This document shows positions 2,617-22,365 of a stretch of 64,000 nucleotides of DNA, one piece after another (the first letter of the stretch is position 1; every line of letters begins with the position of its first letter). The position numbers and the translations under genes were made by a program. Origin of the DNA: a virus; IMG/VR virus record IMGVR_UViG_3300046808_001301; one strand, given 5' to 3'. The notes beneath the pieces are model-generated. The model was not told the DNA's origin and made no database searches. It saw only the letters and a list, made by a program, of their open reading frames with translations.

Positions 2617-2960
2617 GTGATACAGACTTTGAATTCAATATGGACTTTGCTTTGATGGATCAAGAGATTGAGAAGTTCAAGGCAGAGAACAATAGGATCC
2701 TGAATGAGTGGTACAAGGACTGCGAACTACTTCATGCTCAGATAGCGGACCTGCACAACATTAACAAGGAGCTTGAGCTGCGCCGAGAGGAAACGATAAT
2801 GCAGTGCGAGCTACTTAAACAAGACCTAGCAAAGGCTGCAGAGGTTCTCAAGTATATTGAAGAGCAGTCCAGACAAAGCGTTACAGTGGTTGTTGGAGCT
2901 CCATTGAGGGAAGCAGTCTGCAATTGTCTTGATGGTATATGTGGCAAGATTGATAAATAA
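2613..2960 (+). CDS. hypothetical coiled-coil protein
   Basis: ORF with heptad character. Confidence 0.7.
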   Translation: MSDTDFEFNMDFALMDQEIEKFKAENNRILNEWYKDCELLHAQIADLHNINKELELRREETIMQCELLKQDLAKAAEVLKYIEEQSRQSVTVVVGAPLREAVCNCLDGICGKIDK

Positions 2961-2966: not shown

Positions 2967-3428
2967 ATGAAGTCCAACGACCAACAATTGCTAGAAGAAG
3001 CATATAACAAGGTCCTCATCGAACAGATTACAGACGAGTGGTTTCAAGAAGGGTCGTTTGAGACTTATAAGAAGCCAGCTATTGAGCCATACGAAGTAGC
3101 TAAGGAAGACGGGACACTACAGACACTAGAAGGTCCTCAGCAATACAAAGCTGGCTTCTATATCGTGACTGGACCAAAGGGAGAGAAGTATTCTATGCCT
3201 CCAGAGAAGTTTAAAGAGCTCAAGGATGATAATGGAGACGGAACAGCTTCTCCTAAGAAGATTGTAAAGCTTGCTAAGCTTGCTGATTCAGATGGAAAGG
3301 TTAAAACTTCTTGGGGAGCAGAGCTTGAATACAAAACCGGAGAAGACTATATAGTCAAGCATGGTCCAGGAGACTATGGAGTGGTTAAGAAAGACATCTT
3401 CGCAAACACATATTCCTTAAATAAATAG
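2967..3428 (+). CDS. DQQLLEEAY-leader protein with duplicated PGDYG-type domain
   Basis: Leader MKSNDQQLLEEAY; two internal repeats (TLEG..Y.AG.YIV.GPKGE / TSWG..Y.TG.DYIV.HGPGDYG); TAAATA upstream. Confidence 0.8.
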   Translation: MKSNDQQLLEEAYNKVLIEQITDEWFQEGSFETYKKPAIEPYEVAKEDGTLQTLEGPQQYKAGFYIVTGPKGEKYSMPPEKFKELKDDNGDGTASPKKIVKLAKLADSDGKVKTSWGAELEYKTGEDYIVKHGPGDYGVVKKDIFANTYSLNK

Positions 3429-3429
3429 C

Positions 3430-3798
3430 ATGACGATGTCCAACGACCAACAATTATTAGAAGAAGCTTACGAGATGGTATGTGAAAATGGTATACCTCC
3501 GGCAGTGTTTCTTCCTTTGATATCGCTTCTTGGTTCGATCATAGGCTCATCTCTTTCTCAGTACTTTGGTATGTATAACGAAGATCCGAGAACACTTAAA
3601 GAAAAAATCCAAGCTTGGTTTCGAGATAGGACTCTTAAGAAGATTGCTAAGAGGCTTAAAGATGATCCAGAAGTCATTGACTTTGTACGGAATCCAACAA
3701 AGAAGGGTTGGCGGATGATGATGAGTTCCAAGCTATCCGAAGACGAACTTCAGTACTTAAAAAGTCTTAATAGAAGTTATTTTACTTGGCGCAGATAA
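3430..3798 (+). CDS. DQQLLEEAY-leader protein with hydrophobic segment
   Basis: MSNDQQLLEEAYEMVCE then IPPAVFLPLISLLGSIIG; TAAATA upstream. Confidence 0.8.
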   Translation: MTMSNDQQLLEEAYEMVCENGIPPAVFLPLISLLGSIIGSSLSQYFGMYNEDPRTLKEKIQAWFRDRTLKKIAKRLKDDPEVIDFVRNPTKKGWRMMMSSKLSEDELQYLKSLNRSYFTWRR

Positions 3799-3802
3799 TT
3801 CG

Positions 3803-3831
3803 TTGACCTGTCTGCAGGACTATAAGATAGT
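3803..3831 (+). promoter_or_regulatory. Early promoter driving tRNA-like RNAs
   Basis: TTGACC-TGTCT, N17, GATAGT. Confidence 0.55.
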
Positions 3832-3842
3832 CTTTAACAGTA

Positions 3843-3915
3843 TGCGATGTAGCTCAAATGACTAGAGTCCTACTTTGTAGGTAGGAGGTTGAGGGTTAAA
3901 GTCCCTCCATTGCAG
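3843..3915 (+). tRNA. degenerate tRNA-Thr(UGU)-like RNA
   Basis: Cloverleaf TGCGATG/CATTGCA, CCTAC-TTTGTAG-GTAGG, GAGGG-TTAAAGT-CCCTC; lacks D-loop GG and TTC. Confidence 0.7.
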
Positions 3916-3920
3916 AAAAG

Positions 3921-3996
3921 TGACGCTTGGTGTAGAATAGAAAGCATCGCTCTCGTATGGGGGCGGGGACAGAGGCAGGGTCTGTAGCGTCATCCA
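3921..3996 (+). ncRNA. 76-nt tRNA-like RNA with non-canonical loops and encoded CCA
   Basis: TGACGCT/AGCGTCA acceptor, ACAGA-GGCAGGG-TCTGT T-arm, irregular anticodon loop, TCCA end. Confidence 0.7.
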
Positions 3997-4004
3997 ATTT
4001 TCCG

Positions 4005-4033
4005 TTGACCTGTCCAAGTGCTGACAGGACTAT
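4005..4033 (+). promoter_or_regulatory. Early leaderless promoter of rtcB
   Basis: TTGACC-TGTCC, N17, GACTAT; ATG 7 nt later. Confidence 0.65.
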
Positions 4034-4040
4034 ATACATC

Positions 4041-5213
4041 ATGAAGGAAGTAACTGTATTTGGGCAACATGATGAAGGGACTCTGCAGCAGATCAATCTC
4101 TGTGCACAGGGTGCTGAGATGGCTGCACTGATGGCTGACGGGCACAAGGGATATGCTCAGCCAATCGGTGGGGTTGTGGCATACAAGGATAAGGTATCGA
4201 TCTCTGGTGTAGGATTTGATATAGCTTGTGGTAACATGGCTATCCGTACTGATGTGTCTTTAAAGGATGTAAAGGGAAGAGTCCAGACGATCATGGATGA
4301 TGTTGTGAATAATATCTCGTTTGGGGTAGGGAGAGTTAATAATACTCCTGTTGATCATGAGTTGTTTAACAATGATCTGTGGCTAGAGGAACCTTTTAAG
4401 TCTTGGAAGAAGATGGCTATGGACCAGCTTGGGACTGTTGGGTCTGGGAACCACTATGTAGATATCTTTGCGGATGAGAATGATATGGTATGGGTCGGAG
4501 TACACTTTGGTTCTCGCGGACTGGGTCACAAGACTGCTACCTACTTCTTGAAGGCTGCAGGAGGTAAGGATGGAATGGATGTAGAGCCTTGTGTAGTAGA
4601 TGTTAACACTGAGGTAGGTTCTGCTTATCTTCGAGCAATGACTGTAGCTGGCGAGTATGCTTATGCAGGCAGAGAGTATGTTGCAAGGCATGTAGTTAGG
4701 AACATCTTAGGCGCGCGAGTGGTTGAGGAGATTCACAATCACCACAACTTTGCTTGGAAGGAGACTCACTTTGGGGAAGACTATTATGTTGTCCGGAAGG
4801 GAGCTACTCCTGCGTTCGCTGGCCAGAAGGGATTCGTTGGAGGATCAATGGGAGATAATTCTGTTATCCTTCAAGGAGTTGATAGCGAGTTGTCTAAGAA
4901 TGCTTTGTATAGCACTGTGCACGGAGCAGGTCGAGTTATGTCTCGGACTGCTGCTATTGGCAAGTTCGTAAAGGACGAACAAGGCAGGAAGATCCGTCAG
5001 CAAGGACTTGTCCGTCACGATGAGATGATGAAGTGGTTGAGGGACAAGAATGTAGTCCTGAGAGGCGGAGACCTTGATGAGGCTCCGCAAGCATATCGTA
5101 GGCTGGATGAAGTCCTTGCTCAACACGCTGGAACTATAGAAGTCCTTCACACTCTGAGACCTCTCGGAGTAGCAATGGCTGGTAAGGATATTAAGGATCC
5201 ATATAAAGATTGA
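4041..5213 (+). CDS. rtcB: RNA 3'-phosphate/5'-OH ligase RtcB
   Basis: Motifs MADGHKG, GFDIACG, LGTVGSGNHY, HFGSRGLG, HNHHN, RKGAT, HGAGR, DEAPQAY; start moved to 4041. Confidence 0.95.
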   Translation: MKEVTVFGQHDEGTLQQINLCAQGAEMAALMADGHKGYAQPIGGVVAYKDKVSISGVGFDIACGNMAIRTDVSLKDVKGRVQTIMDDVVNNISFGVGRVNNTPVDHELFNNDLWLEEPFKSWKKMAMDQLGTVGSGNHYVDIFADENDMVWVGVHFGSRGLGHKTATYFLKAAGGKDGMDVEPCVVDVNTEVGSAYLRAMTVAGEYAYAGREYVARHVVRNILGARVVEEIHNHHNFAWKETHFGEDYYVVRKGATPAFAGQKGFVGGSMGDNSVILQGVDSELSKNALYSTVHGAGRVMSRTAAIGKFVKDEQGRKIRQQGLVRHDEMMKWLRDKNVVLRGGDLDEAPQAYRRLDEVLAQHAGTIEVLHTLRPLGVAMAGKDIKDPYKD

Positions 5214-5245
5214 CTTGTCCAAGACCTTTCCGGAATATAGACAAC

Positions 5246-5635
5246 ATGAGCGACACACACAAGACAATTGATAGTTACATTAATGCTCTTCGCGAAAGGG
5301 CTACACAAGCTGGAGGACTCGAATATGCTTTGGGATTCCTCTATAGCACACTCGCAGATTTGAAACTGCAAGAGTATGAGATGGGACGCATACGAAAAGA
5401 TACATTTACTCTTCGTAAGCTTGTTGAACAAGAAAACAAGCAAAGAGCAGAGAACAGGTTGAATGATAACTGGATCCCAGCTTGTGGAGGGACAGAGGTA
5501 CCTTTTGTATCTCGTTCTGGCAAACGTCTTCAATATGTCTGGCAACCGTCTACTGGCTATCATGCTTACCTGGATCTGGATTCGGACACGATCCTGTCTG
5601 ATGAAGCTGCTGAGGCTGCTCTAGCTCTTCACTAA
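5246..5635 (+). CDS. hypothetical protein
   Basis: ATG 7 nt after TTGACT-TGTCC...GAATAT promoter (5210-5238). Confidence 0.75.
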   Translation: MSDTHKTIDSYINALRERATQAGGLEYALGFLYSTLADLKLQEYEMGRIRKDTFTLRKLVEQENKQRAENRLNDNWIPACGGTEVPFVSRSGKRLQYVWQPSTGYHAYLDLDSDTILSDEAAEAALALH

Positions 5636-5639
5636 TCTT

Positions 5640-5894
5640 ATGACAACTGCAAACATTAATGGCAAGGAGACTTCTGCAAAGGAGTTTGCTTATGACGGGT
5701 GCCACAAGATTTATCTCTTAGATCAAGAACAAGATAGAGACGAAGCTCGGGATTGTGGTTATGATATTTTGCCTATCTCTCAGCTACAGAAGACATTTGA
5801 CTCAAGCTGTGGACTGCAGTTCATTGACAATTGGAAACTTAACAAGTGCTATGTGTCTCAGTTTGATTCAGAAGCAGTTATAAACCTCATTTAA
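5640..5894 (+). CDS. hypothetical protein (AYDGCHKIY motif)
   Basis: ORF. Confidence 0.75.
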   Translation: MTTANINGKETSAKEFAYDGCHKIYLLDQEQDRDEARDCGYDILPISQLQKTFDSSCGLQFIDNWKLNKCYVSQFDSEAVINLI

Positions 5895-5899
5895 TATAT

Positions 5900-6097
5900 A
5901 TGACAAAACCAGAATATGAATTGATGGAATGCCTTGAGCAAGCACACGACGCATTGGTAGTTGCAGCAAAGATTGCTCACATCGAGAAGTTTCCAGAAGC
6001 TGCAAACATTTCAAGCCAGATTGATACACTAGAAGAGCTCATCAGTGATGCTTGGCAACGGTTTCGTTTAGAGGCGAAGCAATCTATTTGCGAATAG
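5900..6097 (+). CDS. hypothetical protein
   Basis: ORF. Confidence 0.7.
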   Translation: MTKPEYELMECLEQAHDALVVAAKIAHIEKFPEAANISSQIDTLEELISDAWQRFRLEAKQSICE

Positions 6098-6107
6098 AAA
6101 ATAAAAC

Positions 6108-6365
6108 ATGAATACTAAAGACATTAAGCTAGCACTGTGCGGGACCTTTGATACGTTCTCATTGCGCAAAGGAGAGTACACAATCAAGAAGTCCTACTAT
6201 TGGGGATTTGATTCCGACGGAAGTACTTTAGCTAACAAAGTTAAGAAGATCATCCCAGAAGCTGAAGTAGTTGATTATGGCAATCACTGGCATCCATTCG
6301 TGGGAGGAGCAAAGGCTGGGAGTTCACAGGATTCTTATCTTTACTGCAAATTTAAACTACAATGA
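6108..6365 (+). CDS. hypothetical protein
   Basis: ORF. Confidence 0.75.
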   Translation: MNTKDIKLALCGTFDTFSLRKGEYTIKKSYYWGFDSDGSTLANKVKKIIPEAEVVDYGNHWHPFVGGAKAGSSQDSYLYCKFKLQ

Positions 6366-6520
6366 AATTGATCAAGCTCACATACTTTGCAGCAGTAGTA
6401 TTTTATACAACACTACTGGTGACATTTTTAGGTCTCACTTCTTGCAGGGTATATGAACGATATGAAATCAAGAGACAAGCTGCAGCGATGCTAGATCATC
6501 CAAACCTCAACAAACATTAA
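6362..6520 (+). CDS. small membrane or lipoprotein-like peptide (52 aa)
   Basis: Hand-translated MKLIKLTYFAAVVFYTTLLVTFLGLTSC... Confidence 0.55.
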   Translation: MKLIKLTYFAAVVFYTTLLVTFLGLTSCRVYERYEIKRQAAAMLDHPNLNKH

Positions 6521-6521
6521 T

Positions 6522-6752
6522 ATGGAATACTTTAAGATTAATGAAGTGGAAAAGCGTCCGATTGAACAGATTAGGTATAAGCTTATGTACGACCGTCGGA
6601 ACTATACCTTTACGGATTATGTCTATACTGACACAGGCGATCCCGTGGCAGGTGGAGAGTTTGCTATCCTAGTAGACAATCAAGGAAGTACTGTTAAAGA
6701 TCAAAAGGTATTTGATGCAATTGTAGATTACATTATTAAAGAGACTTACTAA
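6522..6752 (+). CDS. hypothetical protein
   Basis: ORF. Confidence 0.7.
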   Translation: MEYFKINEVEKRPIEQIRYKLMYDRRNYTFTDYVYTDTGDPVAGGEFAILVDNQGSTVKDQKVFDAIVDYIIKETY

Positions 6753-6763
6753 TAAATAAAACC

Positions 6764-6901
6764 ATGGAACATAATGACTTAACGTTTGCAGAGTATAGAT
6801 TAGCTGTTCAACTTGCAAAACTTCCTAAAGAGAAAGTGCAACTCATTCTCAAGCAGGCAGCTATCCTGAAGCAAATACCGCCAAGTAAAACAAGAGAATA
6901 A
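6764..6901 (+). CDS. small hypothetical protein (45 aa)
   Basis: Hand-translated MEHNDLTFAEYRLAVQLAKLP...; TAAATA upstream. Confidence 0.55.
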   Translation: MEHNDLTFAEYRLAVQLAKLPKEKVQLILKQAAILKQIPPSKTRE

Positions 6902-6916
6902 GTGAACAAACGCTTG

Positions 6917-7003
6917 GGCCTGTACCCTTGTGAAACTCCGTATTTAAAGATAAGCAGGTCTGCTCCGAAATAAAAGGGTAGGAGAATAAGGAGCACTTTT
7001 TTT
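6917..7003 (+). ncRNA. candidate kissing-loop RNA element or terminator
   Basis: Two adjacent stems with complementary loops (TACCCTT/AAGGGTA), followed by T7. Confidence 0.4.
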
Positions 7004-7018
7004 ATTAAATAAAATAAT

Positions 7019-7387
7019 ATGAAACTCAATGATCGACAACTACTGGAAGAAGCTTACGAAAAAGTTGTGGAAAAATCTTTCCCTCCCGACATGAGAGAGA
7101 AGATCACAAGGTACGCTGAGTTGAGCGATCCAGATTTAGAACATACTGCAGAAGAGGAACTTGAATATGATGATCTGCAGAAGTGGGCTGACCAACACGG
7201 AGTGAGAGATCATTTTGAGAAGCATGCTCAATATTCTCACTACGCAAGGTCTTCTTCAAAAGGACAAGATGACCATTTACAAATGAGACAAAGGTTTATG
7301 AATCCTTTGAGAGTTAATAAAGACGGCAAAGCTAATAAAACAGACATTCAAGGTCGAAAGACCATGATTCGAGACTTGAAGTGGTAA
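7019..7387 (+). CDS. DQQLLEEAY-leader protein
   Basis: MKLNDRQLLEEAYEKVVE; TAAATA at 7006. Confidence 0.8.
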   Translation: MKLNDRQLLEEAYEKVVEKSFPPDMREKITRYAELSDPDLEHTAEEELEYDDLQKWADQHGVRDHFEKHAQYSHYARSSSKGQDDHLQMRQRFMNPLRVNKDGKANKTDIQGRKTMIRDLKW

Positions 7388-7391
7388 GATT

Positions 7392-7835
7392 ATGAAACCT
7401 ACTGACCAACAACTTTTAGAAGAAGCTTATTCAGCTATTAACGAGGGAAAAGACAATACTCCTGTACAAATATTAAAAGGTCCAGTCATGACTCATGTAA
7501 CCATTGAGGACTACTATGTGAGTCTTAATGGTACTGATTACCTTTATCGTACTACGCACACACCAGGACCAAGTAAGCGTCCAGGCAGCAACATCAAAAA
7601 AGAGGAATTGTTTATAGGATTTGGAGACAGCGATCCAAAGCCAACTCCAGGTTCCAACGTAGTCGATAGTCCTTCTCACGAGAAGACCCTTAAGTTAATT
7701 CGCAAGGCTGTAGCTAACCCAGCTAATAGACCGATAGAAAAAGTCTCTCGTAAAGACCTTCGTGACAAATACTCAAAACCCTCTGATCTTGGAAGACAGA
7801 AACCGTACGGATCTACAGGAACCACTGGTTGGTAA
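7392..7835 (+). CDS. DQQLLEEAY-leader protein
   Basis: MKPTDQQLLEEAYSAINE. Confidence 0.8.
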   Translation: MKPTDQQLLEEAYSAINEGKDNTPVQILKGPVMTHVTIEDYYVSLNGTDYLYRTTHTPGPSKRPGSNIKKEELFIGFGDSDPKPTPGSNVVDSPSHEKTLKLIRKAVANPANRPIEKVSRKDLRDKYSKPSDLGRQKPYGSTGTTGW

Positions 7836-7850
7836 AATACACAATCTTAT

Positions 7851-8120
7851 ATGAAAACCAAAGACCAACAACTTTTAGAAGAAGCTTACACCTCAGTTAA
7901 TGAGGGAGACGGTGGCATGGTAAGTGTAGAGATACCTTCTAAATTATGGAAGGCAGCCTTAAATGCTCACAAATTACCAAACTCCCCTGAAGTACTAGCA
8001 ATGGTAATGGGTGAAGTTGTAAATCTTTATTTGCAAAATAAACAATCAAAAAGACAAGAACAAAAAGACTTTCACAATTACATGAAGAAAGTCCATAGCG
8101 GAGAAGCCAGAGAAGATTAA
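7851..8120 (+). CDS. DQQLLEEAY-leader protein
   Basis: MKTKDQQLLEEAYTSVNE. Confidence 0.8.
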   Translation: MKTKDQQLLEEAYTSVNEGDGGMVSVEIPSKLWKAALNAHKLPNSPEVLAMVMGEVVNLYLQNKQSKRQEQKDFHNYMKKVHSGEARED

Positions 8121-8158
8121 TAGTTGACAAGTCCTATAATATCCTGTAGAGTCTTTAC

Positions 8159-8398
8159 ATGACTGAAACGGATAAGCAAAGAGCATACGCTCTTTATAAA
8201 TTTGTTGGAGCTGATCCTATTGATGTAGCAGTGAAACTTGAAAAGGAACGGGACGAGCTTAAAGATATTATTCGTAGAGCTAGCGTTGCTTTTTGTGAGG
8301 ACGGAACTGATAGAGAAATCTGCGCTAAAATGTTTAGTATACTTGGAGAGGCGAGTAATCCAAAAAAAAGTAATGTCCTTAACAAGATGAATAAATAA
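8159..8398 (+). CDS. hypothetical protein (LEKERDE motif)
   Basis: ATG 6 nt after TTGACA-N17-TAGAGT promoter (8124-8152). Confidence 0.7.
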   Translation: MTETDKQRAYALYKFVGADPIDVAVKLEKERDELKDIIRRASVAFCEDGTDREICAKMFSILGEASNPKKSNVLNKMNK

Positions 8399-8408
8399 TT
8401 TACAAAAT

Positions 8409-8566
8409 TTGGTCAAGCGCATAGGCCTGCAAAGCCATATCCGCGACAGATGACAATGCAATGCTTCCGGAAGCAACATTTAATCTGTAGGGAACTTCTC
8501 CTGTTGTTACGCATGCGTCCATAAAATACTTGGAGGGCCAGCAACGGAATGAGAGGTCTTGACCAA
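8409..8566 (+). ncRNA. orphan multi-stem RNA (about 158 nt)
   Basis: Closing helix TTGGTCAAG/CTTGACCAA, internal ACAGAT/ATCTGT and TGCTT/AAGCA stems; GC-rich, intergenic, after TAAATA. Confidence 0.6.
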
Positions 8567-8612
8567 TCTCTTTGTACAGAAAAATCAGAGGCTATTGATA
8601 AATACTTTTACT

Positions 8613-9092
8613 ATGTCAAAAGACCAACAACTTCTTGAAGAAGCATATCAACAAATTTTAGAAGGCAAGTACTTAGATTCTTACGGAAGATATAAAGGCA
8701 AAACAAAGGGTAAGCCGCTTGGGGATTTTGACGATACAGCAAGAGAAGAACTCCGCAACGATGAACGGAACGCTGGGTTAGAAACAGATGTAGATATTCC
8801 CTCTGAACCAGAAAATTCTCCACTTCCTTCAACTGGTTCTTCTGAAACTCCAGCAGCTGCACCTACTATAGATTTTGATCTTTCTTCATTAGCTGATAAG
8901 AAAATAATTCCAGTAATGTGGGATTACCCTGATGTGGTTATTCAAATTGATGGCAAAACAGTAGGACCAATGGTTAGTCGCGATGAGGGAACGGAATTAG
9001 CAAACCAACTCAAAGCGGGAAACATTGAGCACGAACTCGTTCAAAAATTTTTGAGGGCAGCTAAACAAATGGGAGATTTAGACAAACTGTAG
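8613..9092 (+). CDS. DQQLLEEAY-leader protein
   Basis: Start at 8613, MSKDQQLLEEAYQQILE; TAAATA at 8599. Confidence 0.8.
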   Translation: MSKDQQLLEEAYQQILEGKYLDSYGRYKGKTKGKPLGDFDDTAREELRNDERNAGLETDVDIPSEPENSPLPSTGSSETPAAAPTIDFDLSSLADKKIIPVMWDYPDVVIQIDGKTVGPMVSRDEGTELANQLKAGNIEHELVQKFLRAAKQMGDLDKL

Positions 9093-9097
9093 TATAT

Positions 9098-10468
9098 ATG
9101 AATTCGCGAGATCAATTGTTATTGGAACAAGCTTATTGTTCGATTTATAAATCTACTAATTTTCAAAAGTTAGCAGAGAATGATTTGCGGACAATAGAAC
9201 AGTTAATTATCGAAGGGTTTTTTGATGATGTGGCAAACAAAGTAAACAGCATTTGGGGAAAGACAAAAGAAGCTGTTTCAGCTGTTGCTAGTAAACTATC
9301 ATCTAAGTTAGCTAGTACTTTAGCTACGACAATTTTTAATAAACTCGAAGAAGGAGAAAAAGAAAAGTTCCTACAGATTATTGCTTCAGGCAAGCTTCCT
9401 TCAGAAGGGAAAAATATTGCTAAACAAGCAGCTTCTTCAGGAGAGGGACAACAATCCGAATCATTTGAAGACAATAAATCTTTTTTAGCTCATTTGTTGT
9501 TTACAGAAGAGAATCTCAGATATGCGTTAGAAGGAAGTTTACTCACGGAAGGTAAAAATACAGGAGAGTTAAACAAGTTGGCTAAAGAAGTAGCACAAAA
9601 GATAAACGCTTTGTATCCAAAAAATAAAAAAGCAATGGCCAAAGCAATTCCCAAATTTGCTCAGAATGTTTCTAAAAAATTAGGCATACAGCCTCAGGAT
9701 GCCGCTCAACCTCAAACGAACCAACCAGAACAAACTCCTTCCGCGCCCAACGACAAACAAGAAGATAAACAACAAGAGGGAGATCTTGCATCAGCTTATG
9801 ACAAAGCAATGCAGAGATGGAATAACGACAAGCGAAACGAAACGGATCCTTATGGAACCAACAGCGACTCAGAGGACTCGGCCTCAAGCTCAGACAAACA
9901 AATTCAACCTGCTAACAATTCTTCCAACCAACAAGAACAACCTAATAAACAAGAAGGAGAAAAAAACGCTCCTGGGATATTCCAAAAGGTAATGGCTTTT
10001 GCAAAAGCTCATCCTAAGCTTTCAGCTGTAGCTGGAGCTGCTTTAGCTGGGCTTGTTGTTGCTGCTTTTGCTGGTTCTGCTCCCGTCGTCGGTCCAGCTA
10101 TATTTGCTGCAGCAAAAGTTGCTGGCATCACAGCAGTTGGAGATGTTATACAAAAGGCAGTTAGAGGGAAAGAACAAAACTGGAAAGAAACTGCAAAACG
10201 AGCAGCAACCGGTGGAGCAATTGCTGCAGGAGGAAGTATTTTATCAGCAGGTCTTGGAGCAATAGGAATTGATTTAAGTAATATTATTCCCAAAACAGTT
10301 CCTGACAATCAGATCGTAGATTCTAGCAAACACGGATTTGGATACAAAGAACAAGAATATACTAAGTGGCTTGGACACGAAGTTCCAGGAACAAGACACG
10401 TTACCAGCCAATATAATCCCGGAGCAGTTGATGCTGTTAACGCAGAATTTCGAGCTAAGGGAATGTAA
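9098..10468 (+). CDS. large leader-family protein with Ala/Gly-rich hydrophobic C-terminal region
   Basis: MNSRDQLLLEQAY; internal IIEG and LTEG sites; hydrophobic hairpins. Confidence 0.8.
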   Translation: MNSRDQLLLEQAYCSIYKSTNFQKLAENDLRTIEQLIIEGFFDDVANKVNSIWGKTKEAVSAVASKLSSKLASTLATTIFNKLEEGEKEKFLQIIASGKLPSEGKNIAKQAASSGEGQQSESFEDNKSFLAHLLFTEENLRYALEGSLLTEGKNTGELNKLAKEVAQKINALYPKNKKAMAKAIPKFAQNVSKKLGIQPQDAAQPQTNQPEQTPSAPNDKQEDKQQEGDLASAYDKAMQRWNNDKRNETDPYGTNSDSEDSASSSDKQIQPANNSSNQQEQPNKQEGEKNAPGIFQKVMAFAKAHPKLSAVAGAALAGLVVAAFAGSAPVVGPAIFAAAKVAGITAVGDVIQKAVRGKEQNWKETAKRAATGGAIAAGGSILSAGLGAIGIDLSNIIPKTVPDNQIVDSSKHGFGYKEQEYTKWLGHEVPGTRHVTSQYNPGAVDAVNAEFRAKGM

Positions 10469-10512
10469 ACAATTTTCGTTGACTATTCGTGCGAAGGCTG
10501 TATGATGTTTTC

Positions 10513-10827
10513 ATGGCATCAAAGTCTTATATTGTTAATTCAAATTCTACTTCAGTTAATGGCACCCACTTTCAAGGCAACGTGCGTACCACATACGACG
10601 AGCTCGTAAACATTCTAGGTCAGCCAAAAAAAGGTAGCGCGGACGAAAAAACAACGTGCGAATGGAGACTAGAGTTTGAAGACGGAGCAGTTGCTACAAT
10701 TTACGATTGGAAGATGGGAACTACTCCTAAGGATATTTACAATTGGCACGTGGGAGCAAAGGATCATACGGCATTAGACAATTTGCAGGAAGCGTTGAAT
10801 ATTCCAGTTGTAAAAGCAAAATACTAA
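10513..10827 (+). CDS. phage hypothetical protein (TYDELV..LG.P / ATIYDWK)
   Basis: ATG 6 nt after TTGACT-N16-TATGAT. Confidence 0.75.
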   Translation: MASKSYIVNSNSTSVNGTHFQGNVRTTYDELVNILGQPKKGSADEKTTCEWRLEFEDGAVATIYDWKMGTTPKDIYNWHVGAKDHTALDNLQEALNIPVVKAKY

Positions 10828-10828
10828 C

Positions 10829-11101
10829 ATGAAACAATACAATACAATTCACGAATTAGTTGCAGACGCGAAACGAAAAATTAATGATTTAAACAGCATC
10901 GTAGACATTCTTCTTTCGGGTTATAGAACAGCATCTGAAGTAATTGATGAACAAACTGATCACAGAAAACACTACGTGGATCAACTACGAGAATTAAATA
11001 ACGAACTGTCGGCGATCACTGATACACATCCAGCACTAAAGACAGAAAAGCTTGCTCAAGACGTGTTTGCTAATATGATTGATATAGCGTACAATAGGTA
11101 G
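10829..11101 (+). CDS. hypothetical protein
   Basis: ORF. Confidence 0.7.
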   Translation: MKQYNTIHELVADAKRKINDLNSIVDILLSGYRTASEVIDEQTDHRKHYVDQLRELNNELSAITDTHPALKTEKLAQDVFANMIDIAYNR

Positions 11102-11103
11102 AG

Positions 11104-11304
11104 ATGAACCCTTTAAAAGAATATTATTCAACGCATAACTGGTTTCCAAAACAAATGCCTTGTGTTATTATTAATGGAGAAGCGGTTCCTGTAGAAAATG
11201 TGGAGACTGTTAATATAGAGGAGGATGCGTCAGGCAGAGACCTATTAACATTCAACTGGAAAGGAGAACAACTACAATCTTTTGTTGTTCTCAAATACGT
11301 ATAA
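11104..11304 (+). CDS. hypothetical protein
   Basis: ORF. Confidence 0.7.
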   Translation: MNPLKEYYSTHNWFPKQMPCVIINGEAVPVENVETVNIEEDASGRDLLTFNWKGEQLQSFVVLKYV

Positions 11305-11525
11305 TAAATGAAGGGATATTGGGACCACAAAACAAAACCTTCTATGTTTGTTGTCATAAAAGATGGAGTGGAAGTTTATAGAGGACCTTTTGTCGAAGGA
11401 TACAAAATGATTTCAACAACAAGATGTTACAAAACAGAAGTAGCAAAGTATTTTAGCGAACCTGCTTGTTTGACTCCCAAAAAATAAAAGTTGTCTTGTC
11501 CGTTTGTCAAGCGGAATATGATTTT

Positions 11526-11888
11526 ATGTACAAATCCAATATAACCGTTTATCGCGCTCCATGGAATAATATCGTTCGTTTCGACGATCGAGAAAATTGG
11601 TACATAGCAAGAGAGCCTGGAATTTCTTATCGAAGCAAACTAAATGGAGAAGAAGCCGCAGAAGAAGCTTTTCATCTTACTAATGCTCCAGAAGATTGTT
11701 TAGAGGACGAACACAAAGAAATTCTTAAAGAACAACAATTTAAAGGACCTTCGCTTTCTGTAGGAGATGTAGTTAGAGTTGAATCTGTTGTAAAAGGATC
11801 TAAAATGCCTGAGTATTATCTTTGTAAATCTTTTGGTTGGGAAAAATATGAAGGAGATGTAATCCAACTTTTAAAGCATTTGTTATGA
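11526..11888 (+). CDS. YodL-like protein
   Basis: SLSVGDVV...YYLCKSFGW motif; ATG 6 nt after TTGTCT-TGTCC...GAATAT. Confidence 0.55.
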   Translation: MYKSNITVYRAPWNNIVRFDDRENWYIAREPGISYRSKLNGEEAAEEAFHLTNAPEDCLEDEHKEILKEQQFKGPSLSVGDVVRVESVVKGSKMPEYYLCKSFGWEKYEGDVIQLLKHLL

Positions 11889-12151
11889 ACACAAAATATA
11901 AATTTATAGAAACCACTGGGTGTACTGCATTTGATTTTACCGTAAATGGTAAATCCTTTTCTGACATCACTAATGAAGAACATGACGAGATATTAAATTA
12001 TCTTTTTTTAAAAATAAAAGAAGGAATAAACGAACAAACCATACTTCTCGAAAACGTAATCCACTTGTTTCAGTATGACGATTATGAGTATGACGACCAT
12101 ATTTGCGAGCAATGCGGAGACACGGTGACCACAACAACTTGGAACATATGA
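11885..12151 (+). CDS. hypothetical protein with C-terminal CxxC
   Basis: ORF, CEQCGD. Confidence 0.7.
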   Translation: MNTKYKFIETTGCTAFDFTVNGKSFSDITNEEHDEILNYLFLKIKEGINEQTILLENVIHLFQYDDYEYDDHICEQCGDTVTTTTWNI

Positions 12152-12453
12152 AAACACCAACACTTAAACAAAAAGTAGATCAATATGAGGCATTTTTGCA
12201 CAGAATTAATATGTGTTTAATTTCGTGTAACAACGAGGGCATTCAGGAGTTAGTTCAAAATGCTGATCGCTGGAGCTACGCCCACAGAGTTGGAAATGGA
12301 GAGCTTTCAGATAGAGGGCAGCAACAGTTAATCAATAACGCGTTTTGGAAACTTTTGGATACGCCGAAGGCTGACGAAGCAACCAAGCAAAGACAAAAAG
12401 ATTGGATAGAAAAAGCAAAACAGTTAGAAGAGGCTTTTGTAAACAATGATTGA
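12148..12453 (+). CDS. hypothetical protein
   Basis: ATGA-coupled start MKTPTLKQ. Confidence 0.7.
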   Translation: MKTPTLKQKVDQYEAFLHRINMCLISCNNEGIQELVQNADRWSYAHRVGNGELSDRGQQQLINNAFWKLLDTPKADEATKQRQKDWIEKAKQLEEAFVNND

Positions 12454-12721
12454 GGAAATTACTAAGCTAACAGCAGAATGGTATCATTTGATTGGTTCAG
12501 ACCATCACAAAGACAGAGACTGTCATTGGTACATTAATACTAAATGGTCATATGGCAGAGCTCCTGTTTATGTAGTAGAACATTACGGCTATATTTTGGA
12601 TCACTTTGATGGTCAGTGTGATACATATGAAGAAGCTCTACGTATTCTTAAACTTAAACTAGAGGACGCTATAGCGGAAGAAAAGCAGTATCAAGAACAG
12701 TCCAAAGAAGAGCCATTTTAA
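12446..12721 (+). CDS. hypothetical protein (DHHKDRDCHW motif)
   Basis: ORF. Confidence 0.7.
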   Translation: MIEEITKLTAEWYHLIGSDHHKDRDCHWYINTKWSYGRAPVYVVEHYGYILDHFDGQCDTYEEALRILKLKLEDAIAEEKQYQEQSKEEPF

Positions 12722-16782: not shown

Positions 16783-16854
16783 GCACTGGAAGCTAATCGG
16801 TTAGGCAAGGGTCTGCAAAACCCTTTATGGTCGGTTCGACTCCGACCCAGTGCT
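16783..16854 (+). tRNA. tRNA-Cys(GCA)
   Basis: Cloverleaf, AGGGT-CTGCAAA-ACCCT, TTCGA T-loop. Confidence 0.9.
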
Positions 16855-17429
16855 CACTTCCATTGTAACACTCTCGTAGAAGAATTCCGCTCAATTGTAT
16901 CAATTAAAGTTTGAGTTTTTTGTTTAAAAACGTCATCATATAGACCATGAAACTCTACCCACATGGTGACTATATTTTTAGGCCAGCCTCGAGTTATCAT
17001 ATCTTGTAGTAGTTCGTACTCGGCCCATTCTACGTCCATTTTAATATATAGATTTGAGCTAGGATCGAATGCTGTTATAAAATCCCACAAATCAATAGCT
17101 TCAACTGTAGTGCTCGAATGATAATCGTTATAAAAGGTATCCCCTTTAGTTTCCTCTAACAAACTCCCCTGAGAACAACCTTTGTTGCCAAACATTTTAA
17201 ATGTCAATTGTCCAGGCTTTGTCCAAACAGCTTTTTTAAAAAACGTTATATCTAGTTTTTTGTCTTTTAAAATATCGTTATTGTTAAAACTTTGTTCTGT
17301 ATCAATTAACGGATTTGGTTCAAACGAATAAATTTTCCACGTGTCATCAATTGGTAAAATTTGAGATACAAATTCCGTCAACCCTTCGCAGCGATGTGCT
17401 CCTAGGTCTAAAAAAACATTTTTTTCCAT
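16854..17429 (-). CDS. FkbM family methyltransferase
   Basis: FLDLGAH, YSFEPNP, KAVW, YIKMDVEWAEY. Confidence 0.85.
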   Translation of the reverse strand: MEKNVFLDLGAHRCEGLTEFVSQILPIDDTWKIYSFEPNPLIDTEQSFNNNDILKDKKLDITFFKKAVWTKPGQLTFKMFGNKGCSQGSLLEETKGDTFYNDYHSSTTVEAIDLWDFITAFDPSSNLYIKMDVEWAEYELLQDMITRGWPKNIVTMWVEFHGLYDDVFKQKTQTLIDTIERNSSTRVLQWK

Positions 17430-17505
17430 TTGTTGTAATTAGTTAAGTTTTTTAAAAAATAAAGGTTGATTACTTTTAATGAAGTATTATTCTATTAGAA
17501 ATTAT

Positions 17506-17772
17506 ATGTCACAGAATTTTTTGCACAACTATGTTTCAAATTTATCAAACGAATACCACCAACACCCAGAGGTGCAACAAATGGTTTTTGGGCTGGAGGG
17601 AATTATGGGTCCTCACTTTGACTCCACAATTGTTGATGTATGTGTAGAGCGCCAAGCCTGGAAAGAGCTATGTGAAGAATTATACGATGTTGTTTTAGCT
17701 GCTCGTTACAAAACAGATGATTGGGAAACTGAGTTGGCTCGACTGACTCAAAAAATCGAAGATTCAGAATGA
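17506..17772 (+). CDS. hypothetical protein
   Basis: ORF after TTGATT...TATTCT promoter. Confidence 0.7.
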   Translation: MSQNFLHNYVSNLSNEYHQHPEVQQMVFGLEGIMGPHFDSTIVDVCVERQAWKELCEELYDVVLAARYKTDDWETELARLTQKIEDSE

Positions 17773-18218
17773 AAAGAATATACAAATATCCTTCTGAAAC
17801 TGTTTCAATTTCATTTAAAACAGCTTTTTATATTGTGATCGGAGTCCATCTTTTTGGAGCTTTGCTGTACTATGCTATGTCCCATAATAAAACTCCAAGC
17901 AACAAACAACAAGCTGTTGTAGCAGTAAAGCGTGGACCAATTTCTGATGCGCTGAACAACAACTGGCCCAAGAAACCAGAAGCTCCTAAACAGGCTGTAG
18001 CTGTTTCCCTCAAACAAACAATTCAACAACCAAAGTCTGTAGCTGTGGTCCAACTGCATCCCCAACCAGCAGAGTATACTTTAGCACCTGGTGATAATTT
18101 TTACACTGTGTCCAAAAAGCTTGGAGTATCATTTAATGACCTAGCTAAATATAATAATATTCATGACGTTAGAGCGCTTAGAGTAGGACAAGTAATAAAG
18201 GTTCCCCAGAAGAGCTAA
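17769..18218 (+). CDS. membrane-anchored LysM protein
   Basis: ISFKTAF + TM; YTLAPGDNFYTVSKK...LAKYNNI...LRVGQVIKVP. Confidence 0.9.
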   Translation: MKRIYKYPSETVSISFKTAFYIVIGVHLFGALLYYAMSHNKTPSNKQQAVVAVKRGPISDALNNNWPKKPEAPKQAVAVSLKQTIQQPKSVAVVQLHPQPAEYTLAPGDNFYTVSKKLGVSFNDLAKYNNIHDVRALRVGQVIKVPQKS

Positions 18219-18463
18219 TTAAACATCATAGCTCCATAGCTTGAAAAGCTGTCTGCAAAAAATACCCCATTTAGAGCGCTTTTGGTATTTAGATAAGTAT
18301 ATTTGTTATGAAACAAAGATTGCGACGAGCATTTTTGCATTTTCGTTGTTTGTGTTTTAACCCCAAACATTGGAGATTTTATTTGTCAGGAATATTGCGA
18401 GAGATTACAAAAAAATAATTTTTTGTCGTTGAAATGTCCAAATACTCCTGTGAGCATAAGAGT

Positions 18464-20275
18464 ATGAAAAAGACACTAATTGGTTTAACCGCTCTTGTGA
18501 TTTCTTTGTATATTGGCATTTTCTTTTTTAGTTTAAGCTCAGACAAGCCTTTGAATGTAGTCTGCGTTAAGGACAAAGACAATGAAGAAGCCAAGCGCGA
18601 ACAATTCATTGCAATGTCTGCTGTGTTAACCTCTGGCATTGCTGAAACAGAAGTTGTTGATTTAAGTTACATTACAGTACCAGAACTTAAACAGGAAATT
18701 CAACGGTTACCAAAAAACGCTCAATTGAGGGCGCTGCAAAAAATTAAACAACTTCCGGTCAACGACATGAACAGCGTGCATGTTGGACCCAATGGCAGTA
18801 TTTTTTATACATGTCGATCATTAAAGCACAAACACGTTAATCCTTCTTTGTCTGCTCCTAGCGTTGTTAAATCTCAGTTGGTAACAAGTACCGTAAAGCC
18901 GTTTCCTATTTTAGTGTCTCAAATTCCTCAATTTAGCAGTAAGCCAGGATCAGCAAATATTTTGTATCTTTGTTTTGTTGGAGGAAATGTGACCAACACG
19001 TATTGGAATGGCTCAATTGAAACATACAATCCTTTGCCTTTTGATAGAGACGGAACTCCAGCAACATTTAATTCAGAAGAGCAAACTTTTTTAATACAAG
19101 TGTGGGAGAGCGTAGCTGAGGATTTTAAGCCGTTTGACGTTAACGTTACAACCGTTTCTCCGACAGCGGCTCAAATGGCGACAAATAAAGTAATATGGTG
19201 TTACATAACTCCCACAGTTGATTCGAACGGTAACTATCTTCCGTATGCTCCATATGCTGGCGGAGTAGCCTATTTTGACGTGTTTGGCTCAGCTGATTAT
19301 TCTCAATTGTCTCCTATTTGGAATTACAACATATGGGACATGAGCAATTGCGCAGCAACTGTTTCTCATGAAGCTGGCCATAATTTAGGATTATCTCATG
19401 ATGGCACGTTTTCATCGGAATATTATACCGGACATACTGCTAACGGAAGTAACAGCGGAACAAATTGGTTTCCGATTATGGGCAGCGGAATAGGAGTTTC
19501 CCATTGGAGTAAAGGAGAGTACTTCAATGCAAACAATTTCGAAGATGATTTAGCAATTATTGGTACCAAATTAAACTTCAATTTTGACGATAATAGTTCT
19601 TTCAGGCCCTGTTCAGTTTCGTCTACTGGTTATTTCGCAAACGGTACAATAGATTGCAATGACCGCATAGACATTTTTGAATTCAAGGCCCAAACTAATA
19701 TGATTACATTTAATTCAACGTCCAGTATTGCGGACGGGAATTTGGGAATGAGGTTGCAAATTATGAATGGCGGCAACATTCCTCTAGCTAGTAGTGTTAA
19801 TGGAACAGTTGGTCAAAATATCACAGTAACATGCAACAATCTTGTAATAGGAAGCATTTACAGGCTTGCTATATTGCCCATTGGGTCTGGAGCTCCAACA
19901 TCCGTGACACCAACTGGATATACTTCATATGGAAGTTTAGGGAGCTATACTATAACTCAAACGAGCCCAGTGTCTCCAACTCCAACGCCAACTCCTAGTC
20001 CCACTCCTGCTCTTGTTCCAGTTATTAAAACGGAAACAATACACGCGTATGCTAAAGCGTTTAGGTTTTTATACTGGTTAACTGCCTCAAATTCTCCGAC
20101 GACGTGGAAAATAGTTTCCGGTAAGTTGCCAGCAGGTTTAAAATTTGATACCAAGACAAGTTGCATATCAGGCATTCCAACTGTGACTGGAACATTCATG
20201 TTTAATGTCACTGCAACGAACCGACACGGAACATCTAAGCCAACATTAATTGTAATAAAACTTTATCGGTATTGA
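18464..20275 (+). CDS. exported metzincin zinc metalloprotease with C-terminal putative Ig domain
   Basis: N-terminal TM/signal; HEAGHNLGLSHD; IMG Met-turn; PT linker; LPAGL.FD..T..ISG.PT..GT. Confidence 0.85.
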   Translation: MKKTLIGLTALVISLYIGIFFFSLSSDKPLNVVCVKDKDNEEAKREQFIAMSAVLTSGIAETEVVDLSYITVPELKQEIQRLPKNAQLRALQKIKQLPVNDMNSVHVGPNGSIFYTCRSLKHKHVNPSLSAPSVVKSQLVTSTVKPFPILVSQIPQFSSKPGSANILYLCFVGGNVTNTYWNGSIETYNPLPFDRDGTPATFNSEEQTFLIQVWESVAEDFKPFDVNVTTVSPTAAQMATNKVIWCYITPTVDSNGNYLPYAPYAGGVAYFDVFGSADYSQLSPIWNYNIWDMSNCAATVSHEAGHNLGLSHDGTFSSEYYTGHTANGSNSGTNWFPIMGSGIGVSHWSKGEYFNANNFEDDLAIIGTKLNFNFDDNSSFRPCSVSSTGYFANGTIDCNDRIDIFEFKAQTNMITFNSTSSIADGNLGMRLQIMNGGNIPLASSVNGTVGQNITVTCNNLVIGSIYRLAILPIGSGAPTSVTPTGYTSYGSLGSYTITQTSPVSPTPTPTPSPTPALVPVIKTETIHAYAKAFRFLYWLTASNSPTTWKIVSGKLPAGLKFDTKTSCISGIPTVTGTFMFNVTATNRHGTSKPTLIVIKLYRY

Positions 20276-20313
20276 AGCGTTGACTTGTTTATAATTTTTT
20301 ATAGTCTTAATTT

Positions 20314-20808
20314 ATGAGCACAAACAAAAACACCTACCACATTGATGTAACTCAAGAAGAAGATGCTTGGTTTAAAGACCCAGTAATTCCTTCTCAAGAA
20401 GAAAAAAAATCGCCGATTTCATTTAAAACGGCATTTGTAATCGCACTAGTCGTGCACGCAATTGGAGCAATTGCTTTAATCTCAACCGCTCAAAAGGCTA
20501 GCGCAAAGGAGCTAGGAACAGAACCAATAAAAACAACACCTGCTGCTCAGATCCCTGTTCAGACTCCGACACCTGTGCCCAAACCATCTCCAGACGCTCA
20601 GCCTGTAGAGCGTCAAGTTTCTCAGACCGTCTCTGCAGAAAAGGTTGTTCCAAACAACCTAACAAAAGTATACGTTGTAAAACAAGGAGACAGTCTTAAT
20701 TCAATTGCTAGAAAATATAAACTTAGCACTCAACAACTTATAAAATTAAACAACATTACTGATCCAAACAAAATTAAAATTGGACAAACGTTGAAGTTCC
20801 TACACTAA
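20314..20808 (+). CDS. membrane-anchored LysM protein
   Basis: ISFKTAF + TM; YVVKQGDSLNSIARKY...LIKLNNI...IKIGQTL. Confidence 0.9.
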   Translation: MSTNKNTYHIDVTQEEDAWFKDPVIPSQEEKKSPISFKTAFVIALVVHAIGAIALISTAQKASAKELGTEPIKTTPAAQIPVQTPTPVPKPSPDAQPVERQVSQTVSAEKVVPNNLTKVYVVKQGDSLNSIARKYKLSTQQLIKLNNITDPNKIKIGQTLKFLH

Positions 20809-21488
20809 TGAAAACTTGGGTTTTAATTATAGCATGCGTAATCGGTTCTTTGTTTGCTTATGGTCGATACAACGGCGCGCAAGCCAAAAAGCACAGAGAG
20901 CAAAAAAGCCATGTTCTTGTTAATAAACAAATTGAAGAGTACTGGCCACAAGCACAAGGAGCCAAAGTAGTAACGTATCCAAAACAAGTTCCTACAAAGC
21001 CTGTCAACAAAAGCAATATTGATAACATATGTCAGTCGGTTGCTCTCAAGGTTGGTAATTTGTATGAACAGCTCGAATCTGCATTGACGGTAGGATATAA
21101 GATAGTTTGTTCGACGATTAACAACCTAGAAATTAAAACAGCAAAAACAAGCAAATCTCCCTTTATTGATTTGTTCCCCGAGCCAGTAAAAATTGTTGAC
21201 AAGAGCATCGAGAAAAAACCAGCTGTTAAACGCCCACGGCCTTCAGCAAATGAAAAAATTGTTCGCAAACGTCCCGAACAACCCACGAGAAGTTCTTCTG
21301 TTATAACAAGAACCGTTCCTTTACAGATAGCAGAGATGCCGAGAACCATTCCTTTAGAGATAACAGAAACGTCAGTTCCTGTACCAATAGTAAACAGCAA
21401 TAATGAAATCGAAATTCACTCAATAAACGCCACGCCAGCTGTTCCAAGAGCTAATTTTGATTATGTTGTAGTAAATTACAATCGCTAA
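20808..21488 (+). CDS. exported Pro-rich hypothetical protein
   Basis: N-terminal signal or TM. Confidence 0.7.
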   Translation: MKTWVLIIACVIGSLFAYGRYNGAQAKKHREQKSHVLVNKQIEEYWPQAQGAKVVTYPKQVPTKPVNKSNIDNICQSVALKVGNLYEQLESALTVGYKIVCSTINNLEIKTAKTSKSPFIDLFPEPVKIVDKSIEKKPAVKRPRPSANEKIVRKRPEQPTRSSSVITRTVPLQIAEMPRTIPLEITETSVPVPIVNSNNEIEIHSINATPAVPRANFDYVVVNYNR

Positions 21489-21571
21489 TGTACAGTATCT
21501 TACAAAGAGTGACGCATTGATTCATTTTAAAATAACATTAATTACATTAAAGGGCTAAACATGAAAACGAG

Positions 21572-21792
21572 CCGCGACCCACTGATAAGGGGAGGTTTGG
21601 TCCTGAGACGTCGCGGGTAAACGTCTCGCTTATACCAGATCCGATTAGGCAGGGAGTAATAAGTAAACTTCGTCCAGCGTGTTAAAACACGGTAGCCAAT
21701 GAAGAACTTTCTGGTATAATACATTTTGATCTCTGCCAAAGGCAGGAATCCTACAGAGGCTTGACCATTGAGCCAGCGATGCAAATCAGTGG
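21572..21792 (+). ncRNA. orphan structured RNA (about 220 nt) upstream of tmRNA
   Basis: CCACTGAT/ATCAGTGG, TTATACCAGA/TCTGGTATAA, GAGACGT/ACGTCTC, CCGCGAC/GTCGCGG pairings. Confidence 0.65.
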
Positions 21793-21810
21793 TAACGATC
21801 TTTGAAATTT

Positions 21811-22267
21811 GGGGGCGTACTGGTTTCGATTTATAGTCGGAATTAAAAGCGCATGCCGTGGTTGATCTGTTGGCCACGTTAAAAGCAGATCAAAAACTAA
21901 ACGCAGAAGACAACACTTCTGACCTCTTAGCTGAGGCCGAGTATATCTTCAACAATGCTGACGAAGTCCTCGCTAGCTTTGAAGAAGAGTACGAACTCGC
22001 AGCCTAAGAGCCTAGTAGAGGATCCTCTAAATCTACTTTGAACGACAGAGGTTCGTGCACGAGGTGACTAGTGTGGTAAAATTAGTCATAGGTGATATGC
22101 GGTCTTTAATCACGCATATAGGCAGACATAAAACTCGGTTGGTGCAACCAAACAGCCTATTGTCTCCGTTACCGTAGGGTAGCTGAAATGTTGAATGTAT
22201 CCAAGCATGTGAAGACCTTTTAATGTAAATTATAAAGACAGGGGTTCAACTCCCCTCGCCTCCACCA
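21811..22267 (+). ncRNA. ssrA: tmRNA
   Basis: GGGGGCG...CGCCTCCACCA with G3-U70, GGTTTCGA 5' motif, T-arm, tag ORF 21903-22007 ending YELAA*. Confidence 0.95.
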
Positions 22268-22272
22268 CTTTT

Positions 22273-22359: not shown

Positions 22360-22365
22360 CTTAAC

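Follow-up and report, generated by a model that had tools for sequence, protein, structure and literature searches.

Phages of the T4 type carry small internal proteins in their heads, and these proteins open with a short N-terminal peptide, the capsid targeting sequence (CTS). The T-even internal proteins have been described as a diverse set with the CTS alone in common (PMC3012670, citing Repoila et al. 1994), and the T4 CTS as a means of incorporating various proteins (PMC9026906). The protease gp21 cuts after Glu in L/I-X-E; in internal protein IPIII, residues 4 and 7 matter in targeting, and residues 8 and 10 in processing (PMC9026906). IPII and IPIII of T4 open MKTYQEFIAE/A (a slash marks the cut), and IPI opens MKTFKEFTSTTTPVSTITE/A, with the cut at residue 19. 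For the T-even internal proteins, a portable packaging tag on diverse cargos is thus already accepted. In this study, we analyzed a stretch of 64,000 nucleotides (nt) of the virus record IMGVR_UViG_3300046808_001301 from IMG/VR (the window, which means this whole stretch). Seven of its genes encode otherwise unrelated proteins that open with one conserved peptide, hereafter the tag.

Two other kinds of system invite comparison. In the phiKZ-like giant phages 201phi2-1 and SPN3US, many head proteins are cut after Glu by a diverged gp21 homologue, and their propeptides have redundant sites (PMC9026906). Like the scheme proposed below, this involves propeptides of ejection and inner-body proteins that are cut after Glu, at a very short motif, by a gp21-related protease. 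The motif there is S/A-X-E and no single leader is common to the proteins, whereas here a T4-like phage has one sharply defined tag. Microcompartment encapsulation peptides (an N-terminal amphipathic helix of ~18 residues plus a linker) and encapsulin cargo-loading peptides suffice to load unrelated cargo into protein shells. These peptides have no homology to the tag, serve other shells and do not come off through a maturation protease, and we saw no genes here for microcompartments or encapsulins.

The seven tags stand at the N-termini of genes on the plus strand and read M-x(1-4)-D-[QR]-[QL]-L-L-E-[EQ]-A-Y. The initial annotation had named seven open reading frames (ORFs) with such a leader, and our ORF listing has all of them on this strand, at the same starts, each opening with the motif. 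The genes are:

2967-3428, plus strand: tagged gene 1, 153 amino acids (aa); tag MKSNDQQLLEEAYNKVLIE and a PGDYG-domain body; tagged orthologues in L001, L029, P0050 and P0100.
3430-3798, plus strand: tagged gene 2, 122 aa (120 aa if the ATG at 3436 is the start); tag, one transmembrane-like (TM-like) segment, basic body.
7019-7387, plus strand: tagged gene 3, 122 aa; tagged orthologue at 8255 of the 217-kb relative G001.
7392-7835, plus strand: tagged gene 4, 147 aa, basic body; starts 4 nt past gene 3.
7851-8120, plus strand: tagged gene 5, 89 aa; starts 15 nt past gene 4.
8613-9092, plus strand: tagged gene 6, 159 aa, acidic body; its body family, GKYxDxYGR...NDERNAGLE, is found again behind the tag in metagenomes.
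9098-10468, plus strand: tagged gene 7, 456 aa; the most diverged tag (MNSRDQLLLEQAY), without a nearby [VI]-x-E; three TM-like segments within residues 306-391.

These genes form three tandem groups (2967 and 3430; 7019, 7392 and 7851; 8613 and 9098). Translation of gene 2 from the alternative ATG at 3436 gives MSNDQQ, in the same register as MSKDQQ of gene 8613. The tag DNA of genes 4 and 5 (7392 and 7851) is identical over 26 nt; these neighbours are the only copies with identical DNA, consistent with a recent duplication in place. Scanned in six frames, the window has no occurrence of D[QR][QL]LLE[EQ]AY outside the seven N-termini. When tag core residues 7-19 were scored with a weight matrix made from 189 tagged proteins, the seven window tags reached 24-38 bits, and other positions in the 114 called genes reached -0.3 at most. 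The initial annotation had also pointed to a [VI]-x-E within about six residues; read as [VI/L]-x-E, it occurs within six residues past AY in six of the seven proteins (LIE, VCE, VVE, INE, VNE and ILE), with the 9098 protein as the exception.

Behind the tag, the seven bodies are unrelated, as had been claimed, and the proteins are not full-length paralogues: the best BLASTP match between tag-trimmed sequences spans 40 aa at 32% identity (E 0.008 in a 7-sequence database). Their variety also agrees with the earlier description and includes a PGDYG domain, TM-like segments (one in the 3430 protein, three in the 9098 protein) and cargo isoelectric points (pI) from 4.5 to 10. Pfam PGDYG matches residues 56-149 of the 2967 protein (E 1.8e-8), and the start of the model lies outside the tag.

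The tag is widespread among uncultured relatives. A degenerate DNA pattern for DQQLLEEAY gave 16 matches in 13 IMG/VR loci, all of them N-terminal and four residues past Met, and a small hidden Markov model (HMM) detected more diverged copies beside those loci, often as tandem arrays. The 39 distinct tagged proteins from the window and IMG/VR have bodies that fall into 30 clusters. Searched against 1.84 billion cluster representatives, a profile of the 39 tags matched 399 clusters (50% identity) at E<=1e-3. In about 146 of the 150 best clusters the match begins at residue 1, and the proteins are 29 to 520 aa long. The tag occurs four times in G001, three times in G002, nine times in G003, 15 times in G004 and seven times in the window; across genomes, we put the range at 4 to at least 15 copies.

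The tag consensus is M1 K2 S3 K4 D5 Q6 [QIT]7 L8 L9 E10 E11 A12 Y13 x K15 [IV]16, followed by Glu at 18-20. Its length is 16-19 residues, and conservation ends past residue 20. Over the 39 copies, five codons are used for Leu8 and six for Leu9, and the Asp, Ala and Tyr codons are mixed, with the residues invariant; because synonymous codons vary freely, selection acts on the tag peptide. AlphaFold, run on the tag alignment, predicted a helix at residues 4-17, with predicted local distance difference test (pLDDT) values of 92 and 82 for the first two ten-residue blocks. One face of this helix would carry L8, L9, A12, Y13 and I/V16, and its hydrophobic moment is in the top 4% of shuffles. The tag is thus a predicted amphipathic helix.

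By the distribution of its sequence, the tag is confined to viruses. Among 185,579 species genomes there was one true match, on a 7-kb contig of a metagenome-assembled genome (MAG). There, L035 1198-2031 encodes a tagged PGDYG protein of 277 aa, on a contig binned with an uncultured Melainabacteria MAG, which makes it either a mis-binned phage contig or a weak hint about the host. A search of the ESM Atlas gave no usable match, and a word-indexed protein search with residues 1-40 of the 7851 protein returned orthologues only (8 proteins). No published paper was found for LLEEAY, DQQLLEE or related strings, and the sole LLEQAY match was unrelated.

We lean towards the view that the tag is a clade-specific counterpart of the T4 CTS. 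Tagged genes would be expressed late, from gp55-dependent promoters, and the amphipathic helix would dock the protein, through the face described above, on the scaffolding core during prohead assembly. A gp21-type prohead protease would then remove the tag by cutting after Glu11 (L-E-E/A, compare I-A-E/A in T4) and/or after the [ILVMF]-x-E at 18-20. The freed bodies would remain in the head and reach the next host along with the DNA. Since the tag alone would suffice in this mechanism, bodies could be gained, lost and swapped freely.

Both candidate cut sites are conserved. L9-E10-E11 followed by A12 is conserved at 85-100%. L8-L9-E10-E11/A12, the most conserved residues of the tag, align, with one gap, with F7-I8-A9-E10/A11 of T4 IPII and IPIII. 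Compared with the T4 CTS, MKTYQEFIAE, the tag has five identities and four conservative replacements over 11 residues (with one gap, and too short for statistics). The aligned residues include I8 and E10, which are required in T4 for processing. A second [ILVMF]-x-E ending at residues 17-22, and nearly always at 18-20, is present in 137 of the 189 tagged proteins (72%) versus a background of 11%; the residue after it is mostly N, S, G, Q, E or A. In the capsid protein of G001, L-R-E comes right past an ENQEK block that T4 gp23 also has.

The likeness to T4 extends to the arrangement of the system. In both cases a short N-terminal tag stands on otherwise unrelated small proteins (IPI, IPII and IPIII in T4) of a T4-type phage, and both peptides open MK[ST] and have hydrophobic-hydrophobic-x-Glu and then Ala (MKTYQEFIAE/A in T4, MKSKDQQLLEE/A here). 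The possible second cut near residue 19 of the tag may be compared with the cut in IPI. In both, the genes lie in a variable region beside tRNA and RNA-repair genes, and a gp21-family protease is encoded, here in relatives. The tag differs from the T4 CTS in being longer and more conserved, with 13 nearly invariant residues versus 10 in T4, a few of which matter. The repertoire here is 4 to at least 15 per genome, in at least 399 clusters, versus three internal proteins in T4. What is new is the tag sequence, its high conservation across phages with polymerases only 47% identical, the size of the repertoire and the uncultured clade.

The window covers the left-hand 64 kb of an uncultured freshwater phage that, by its gene content, is a distant member of the T4 superfamily. 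It encodes gp43 polymerase, gp41, UvsX, gp46/47, gp32 and RtcB, and its gp43 shares about 32% identity with cyanomyovirus polymerases. The polymerases of the relatives G003, G001 and G002 are 80%, 77% and 47% identical to that of the window. G001 is a complete IMG/VR genome of 217 kb with terminal repeats and four tagged genes. G001 and G002 both carry the tag, and both have genes for a Peptidase_S77 (gp21-type) protease, a scaffold protein (G001 107582-108547) and a capsid protein of the gp23 type.

The timing of expression was examined through promoter-like motifs. The T4 late promoter, TATAAATA, is read by gp55, and ATAAATA is expected, by analogy, to be its counterpart in this phage. In G001, ATAAATA stands 5-14 nt before the ATG of tail sheath, sheath stabiliser, fibre, scaffold and protease genes. 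The initial annotation had noticed TAAATA 7-8 nt upstream of four tagged genes, and it is there before the ATGs of 2967, 7019 and 8613 and before the alternative ATG 3436. The plus strand of the window has only 38 copies of TAAATA, and a binomial estimate gives a chance of ~1e-8 that four of seven tagged genes would have it at that spacing. The motifs and the candidate late factor are:

2953-2959, plus strand: ATAAATA late-promoter-like motif, 7 nt before the ATG of gene 1; heads the group 2967 and 3430.
3421-3427, plus strand: ATAAATA, 2 nt before ATG 3430 and 8 nt before ATG 3436.
7006-7011, plus strand: TAAATA, 7 nt before the ATG of gene 3; heads the group 7019, 7392 and 7851.
8598-8604, plus strand: ATAAATA, 8 nt before the ATG of gene 6; heads the group 8613 and 9098.
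42321-42824, plus strand: gp55-like late sigma factor (phrog_234, E 9e-18), which adjoins gp47 as in T4.

The gp55-like factor is expected to read motifs of the ATAAATA type. Across the genes compared, [AT]TAAATA lies 2-12 nt upstream of 20 of 51 tagged and 70 of 646 other genes (p 7e-7, even with alternative starts permitted for the untagged ones), and in the window alone of 4 of 7 tagged versus 2 of 107 others. The initial annotation would have taken as support HMM matches to the tag only at the N-termini of late-promoter genes with diverse C-termini. The N-terminal position and the diverse C-termini were borne out, and a late-type motif directly upstream was seen in 20 of the 51 tagged genes. 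It had also held that early transcription would count against head loading. That is a weak argument, as the 60 nt upstream of T4 ipII, ipIII and ipI are without TATAAATA; the late-type motif a few nt from the ATG in the present phage is in fact a difference from these T4 genes.

The late-type motif precedes the first gene in each of the three tandem groups. Sigma-70-like promoters, all identified by consensus match only, follow the groups:

3803-3831, plus strand: TTGACC-17-GATAGT, right after tagged group 1 and before tRNA-Thr and rtcB.
8124-8152, plus strand: TTGACA-17-TAGAGT, right after tagged group 2 and before the untagged ORF 8159-8398.
10479-10506, plus strand: TTGACT-16-TATGAT, right after tagged group 3.

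Since a late-type motif heads each group and a sigma-70-like promoter serves the next untagged unit, the tagged genes look, from these motifs, like late islands within an early-type region. Sigma-70-like promoters (115-143, 405-433, 8124-8152 and 10479-10506) and the late motifs of G001 end 5-10 nt before the starts, and a Shine-Dalgarno sequence was found in few genes only. With this promoter-start distance and so few Shine-Dalgarno sequences, many mRNAs may be leaderless, a feature that might help to point to the host.

The idea of a capsid-loading system is partly supported. All of its sequence-level predictions that could be examined here agree with it: a strictly N-terminal position, swappable and unrelated bodies, restriction to viruses, an S77 protease in a T4-like relative, cleavage motifs and a late-like motif. 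The portable tag as such is not new, and it is from sequence that we infer that the tag docks and is cut off, that the proteins are packaged and injected, and whatever role their bodies may have. The anti-defence role that had been assigned to the cargos is pure speculation, for among 150 bodies Pfam recognized only PGDYG (2), a SEC-C motif (1) and a sub-threshold ART-PolyVal (1). The last, in P0120 (a contig of only 1 kb), would be an ADP-ribosyltransferase that parallels T4 Alt. It scored 20.9 bits versus a cut-off of 31.2 and was not relied on.

Several observations weigh against head loading. Of the tagged genes, 61% are without a late-like motif directly upstream, and their co-transcription in tandem is an assumption; the motif also overlaps upstream stop codons in an AT-rich genome. 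The likeness to the T4 CTS is one of pattern only, MK[ST]..Q[EQ]-hydrophobic-hydrophobic-x-E/A, and too short for statistics. T4 internal proteins are basic, whereas acidic bodies predominate here (pI<7 in 98 of 139), and TM-like segments, as in two of the window bodies, are unusual for head cargo. AlphaFold of the full-length PGDYG protein (5 sequences) gave a mean pLDDT of 50, too poor to judge whether tag and body are detached. The 64.1-kb window contig has no head genes, so the prohead protease is known only from relatives. A tblastn search of 50,697 cultured-phage records with a 33-aa piece of the tag (E<=10), a short query with little power, gave no match, and neither did megablast of the region or tblastn of the PGDYG protein against the same records. 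Finally, the scaffold N-terminal segments of G001 and G002 read ..IEEAFNQAVEE.. and ..IAEAFEAAVNE.., and the scaffold N-terminus (..IEEAFNQAVEE..) was not among the top matches of the weight-matrix scan of G001. We regard as unsupported the suggestion that the tag is a copy of the scaffold N-terminus, in the way that the T4 CTS resembles gp22 (MLKEQLIAEA).

The main rival explanation, which we consider unlikely, is that the helix is instead a docking handle for another common partner inside the infected cell, be it a host protein, a phage chaperone or a sorting hub, and that the tagged proteins act in the producing cell. What the data directly show is only a conserved amphipathic helix on many bodies. 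These bodies are mostly small acidic orphans, as are many intracellular takeover proteins, and their genes sit among small genes of early type. Moreover, the C-terminal ..DFDIDLEDF that is added in a G004 subfamily (described below) resembles a second interaction peptide. This explanation does not account for the late-promoter-like motif, which is enriched on tagged genes at the spacing of structural genes, or for the gp21-type Glu sites conserved within the tag. Nor was a recurrent partner gene found beside the tagged genes; only an RNA ligase and a metallophosphoesterase turn up there repeatedly, and both have the look of ordinary neighbours.

A bolder proposal, which we regard as doubtful, is that the tag is not a capsid signal at all. 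It would then serve as an address label in a sorting system, not yet described and confined to viruses, where a single partner of the late phase, either a phage hub or a host protein, binds the helix on hundreds of unrelated orphans. By extension, the tag might serve twice, first in head loading and then, where it is left uncut for want of a second Glu site, in docking to a host target after injection.

We think it improbable that the tag attaches proteins to the virion without being cleaved, for example as a plug that fixes interchangeable small proteins outside the head, on the neck or tail. Such a role would suit a virus-only tag with a late-type motif common to structural genes, and within the structural region of G001 one tagged gene (79266, minus strand) comes next downstream of a late gene that encodes 1328 aa. 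The bodies, however, are mostly orphans of 50-200 aa with no recognisable binding or fibre domains, the conserved Glu sites suit removal by a protease, and a range of 4 to at least 15 copies in a genome, together with fast turnover, suits cargo better than fixed structural positions.

Conservation at the level of nucleic acid (a translation start element of leaderless late mRNAs or a recombination site), or simple paralogy with fast-evolving bodies, is very improbable. The promoter-like motifs 5-10 nt from start codons of mRNAs that may be leaderless, the 26 identical nt between tags 7392 and 7851, and mosaic bodies such as those of L009 (the proteins at 700 and 1132 are alike only over the first 35 body residues) could be taken in its favor. 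We rejected it because synonymous sites are free to vary over 39 copies whose residues are invariant and because the bodies are unrelated by BLAST, one of them being an independent Pfam domain that starts at residue 56; in addition, other late genes of like promoter geometry have no tag. A modifying enzyme that recognizes the tag, as with the leaders of ribosomally synthesized and post-translationally modified peptides, is hardly credible. No radical-SAM/SPASM or other recurrent enzyme lies near the tagged genes (13 IMG/VR loci, G001 and two JGI contigs with Pfam hits), where the genes that recur are those for an RNA ligase of the Rnl1 type and a metallophosphoesterase, along with orphans. The sole radical-SAM gene of the window is QueE-like; a QueD-like gene comes just before it, and it lies 26 kb away from the tagged genes. 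The tag, moreover, is without the Cys-, Ser- or Thr-rich core typical of such substrates.

Some tagged proteins show further features. In G004, a variant tag (MNKDQKLLEEAY) opens eight genes for proteins of 170-226 aa (L031, which is G004 40001-58000, at 5146-12604). Seven of the eight proteins also have a conserved acidic C-terminal tail (..DFDIDLEDF, ..ISALEGF or ..LEALKDF), and some contain units like leucine-rich repeats. Two proteins of L029 (4911-6053) have the C-termini ..LPELEGVF and ..LPEIKGLF. We take these tails to be reminiscent of an SSB-tip or clamp-binding peptide; they are rare in the top 150 clusters. The samples of L029 and L030 are JGI 3300008262 and 3300008108, probably lake (freshwater) metagenomes. 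A second, internal copy of the tag is present in three of the 150 best matches (P0015, P0130 and P0012, at residues 25-46, about 36-48 and 320-338), and these could be tandem tags, polyproteins or fused gene calls. In G001, a late-motif gene four genes from the capsid gene (102111-102668, minus strand; L021 2111-2668) encodes a lysine-rich, low-complexity protein of 185 aa with three degenerate tag-like units (MVFKDTQTLSGLYEGITKK, PSKDQLIEQA and LSKDQDMLAEAYNVITNK). Its product may belong to the head interior or the core and be related to the tag.

Other parts of the window were also surveyed. Directly upstream of the tagged genes, at 1758-2960, four consecutive genes with overlapping stops and starts (1758, 1910, 2230 and 2613) open M[ST]DTPET[DK] or MSDTDFE. 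Three of the four have an R-x-LERE/LERAL-type stretch further in, and they look like a second small tandem family with a common N-terminus. The window contains 14 tRNA genes, including a lone tRNA-Thr (3843-3915) between tagged gene 2 and rtcB. A gene like transfer-messenger RNA (21811-22267; ARAGORN; tag peptide ending ...YELAA) opens the tRNA array at 16783-25146. Genes for QueD-like, QueE-like (radical SAM) and GTP cyclohydrolase proteins, a set that makes 7-deazaguanine precursors, are located at 36264-37500 and 62624-63271, and the phage DNA may carry a modification of the 7-deazaguanine type. At least three glycosyltransferase-like and two methyltransferase-like genes are inserted between gp47 and gp46 (43820-49675), with a further glycosyltransferase before gp43 (52861-54075).

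If the tag is a head-loading signal, it marks, from sequence alone, the proteins that uncultured T4-like phages would carry into the host, and it is so sharply defined that nothing untagged scores close. The clusters, at least 399 and nearly all of them orphans, would then be a candidate list of takeover or anti-defence proteins. The cargo-loading mechanism of T4 would also have a longer history and a wider use than one would gather from the three T-even internal proteins, and each clade would keep a tag version of its own. Foreign proteins could be loaded into heads by means of a strongly conserved tag that has a defined cut site, as has been done with T4. Should the tag not be a head signal, it would be an undescribed virus-only motif for protein addressing, which would be more interesting still.

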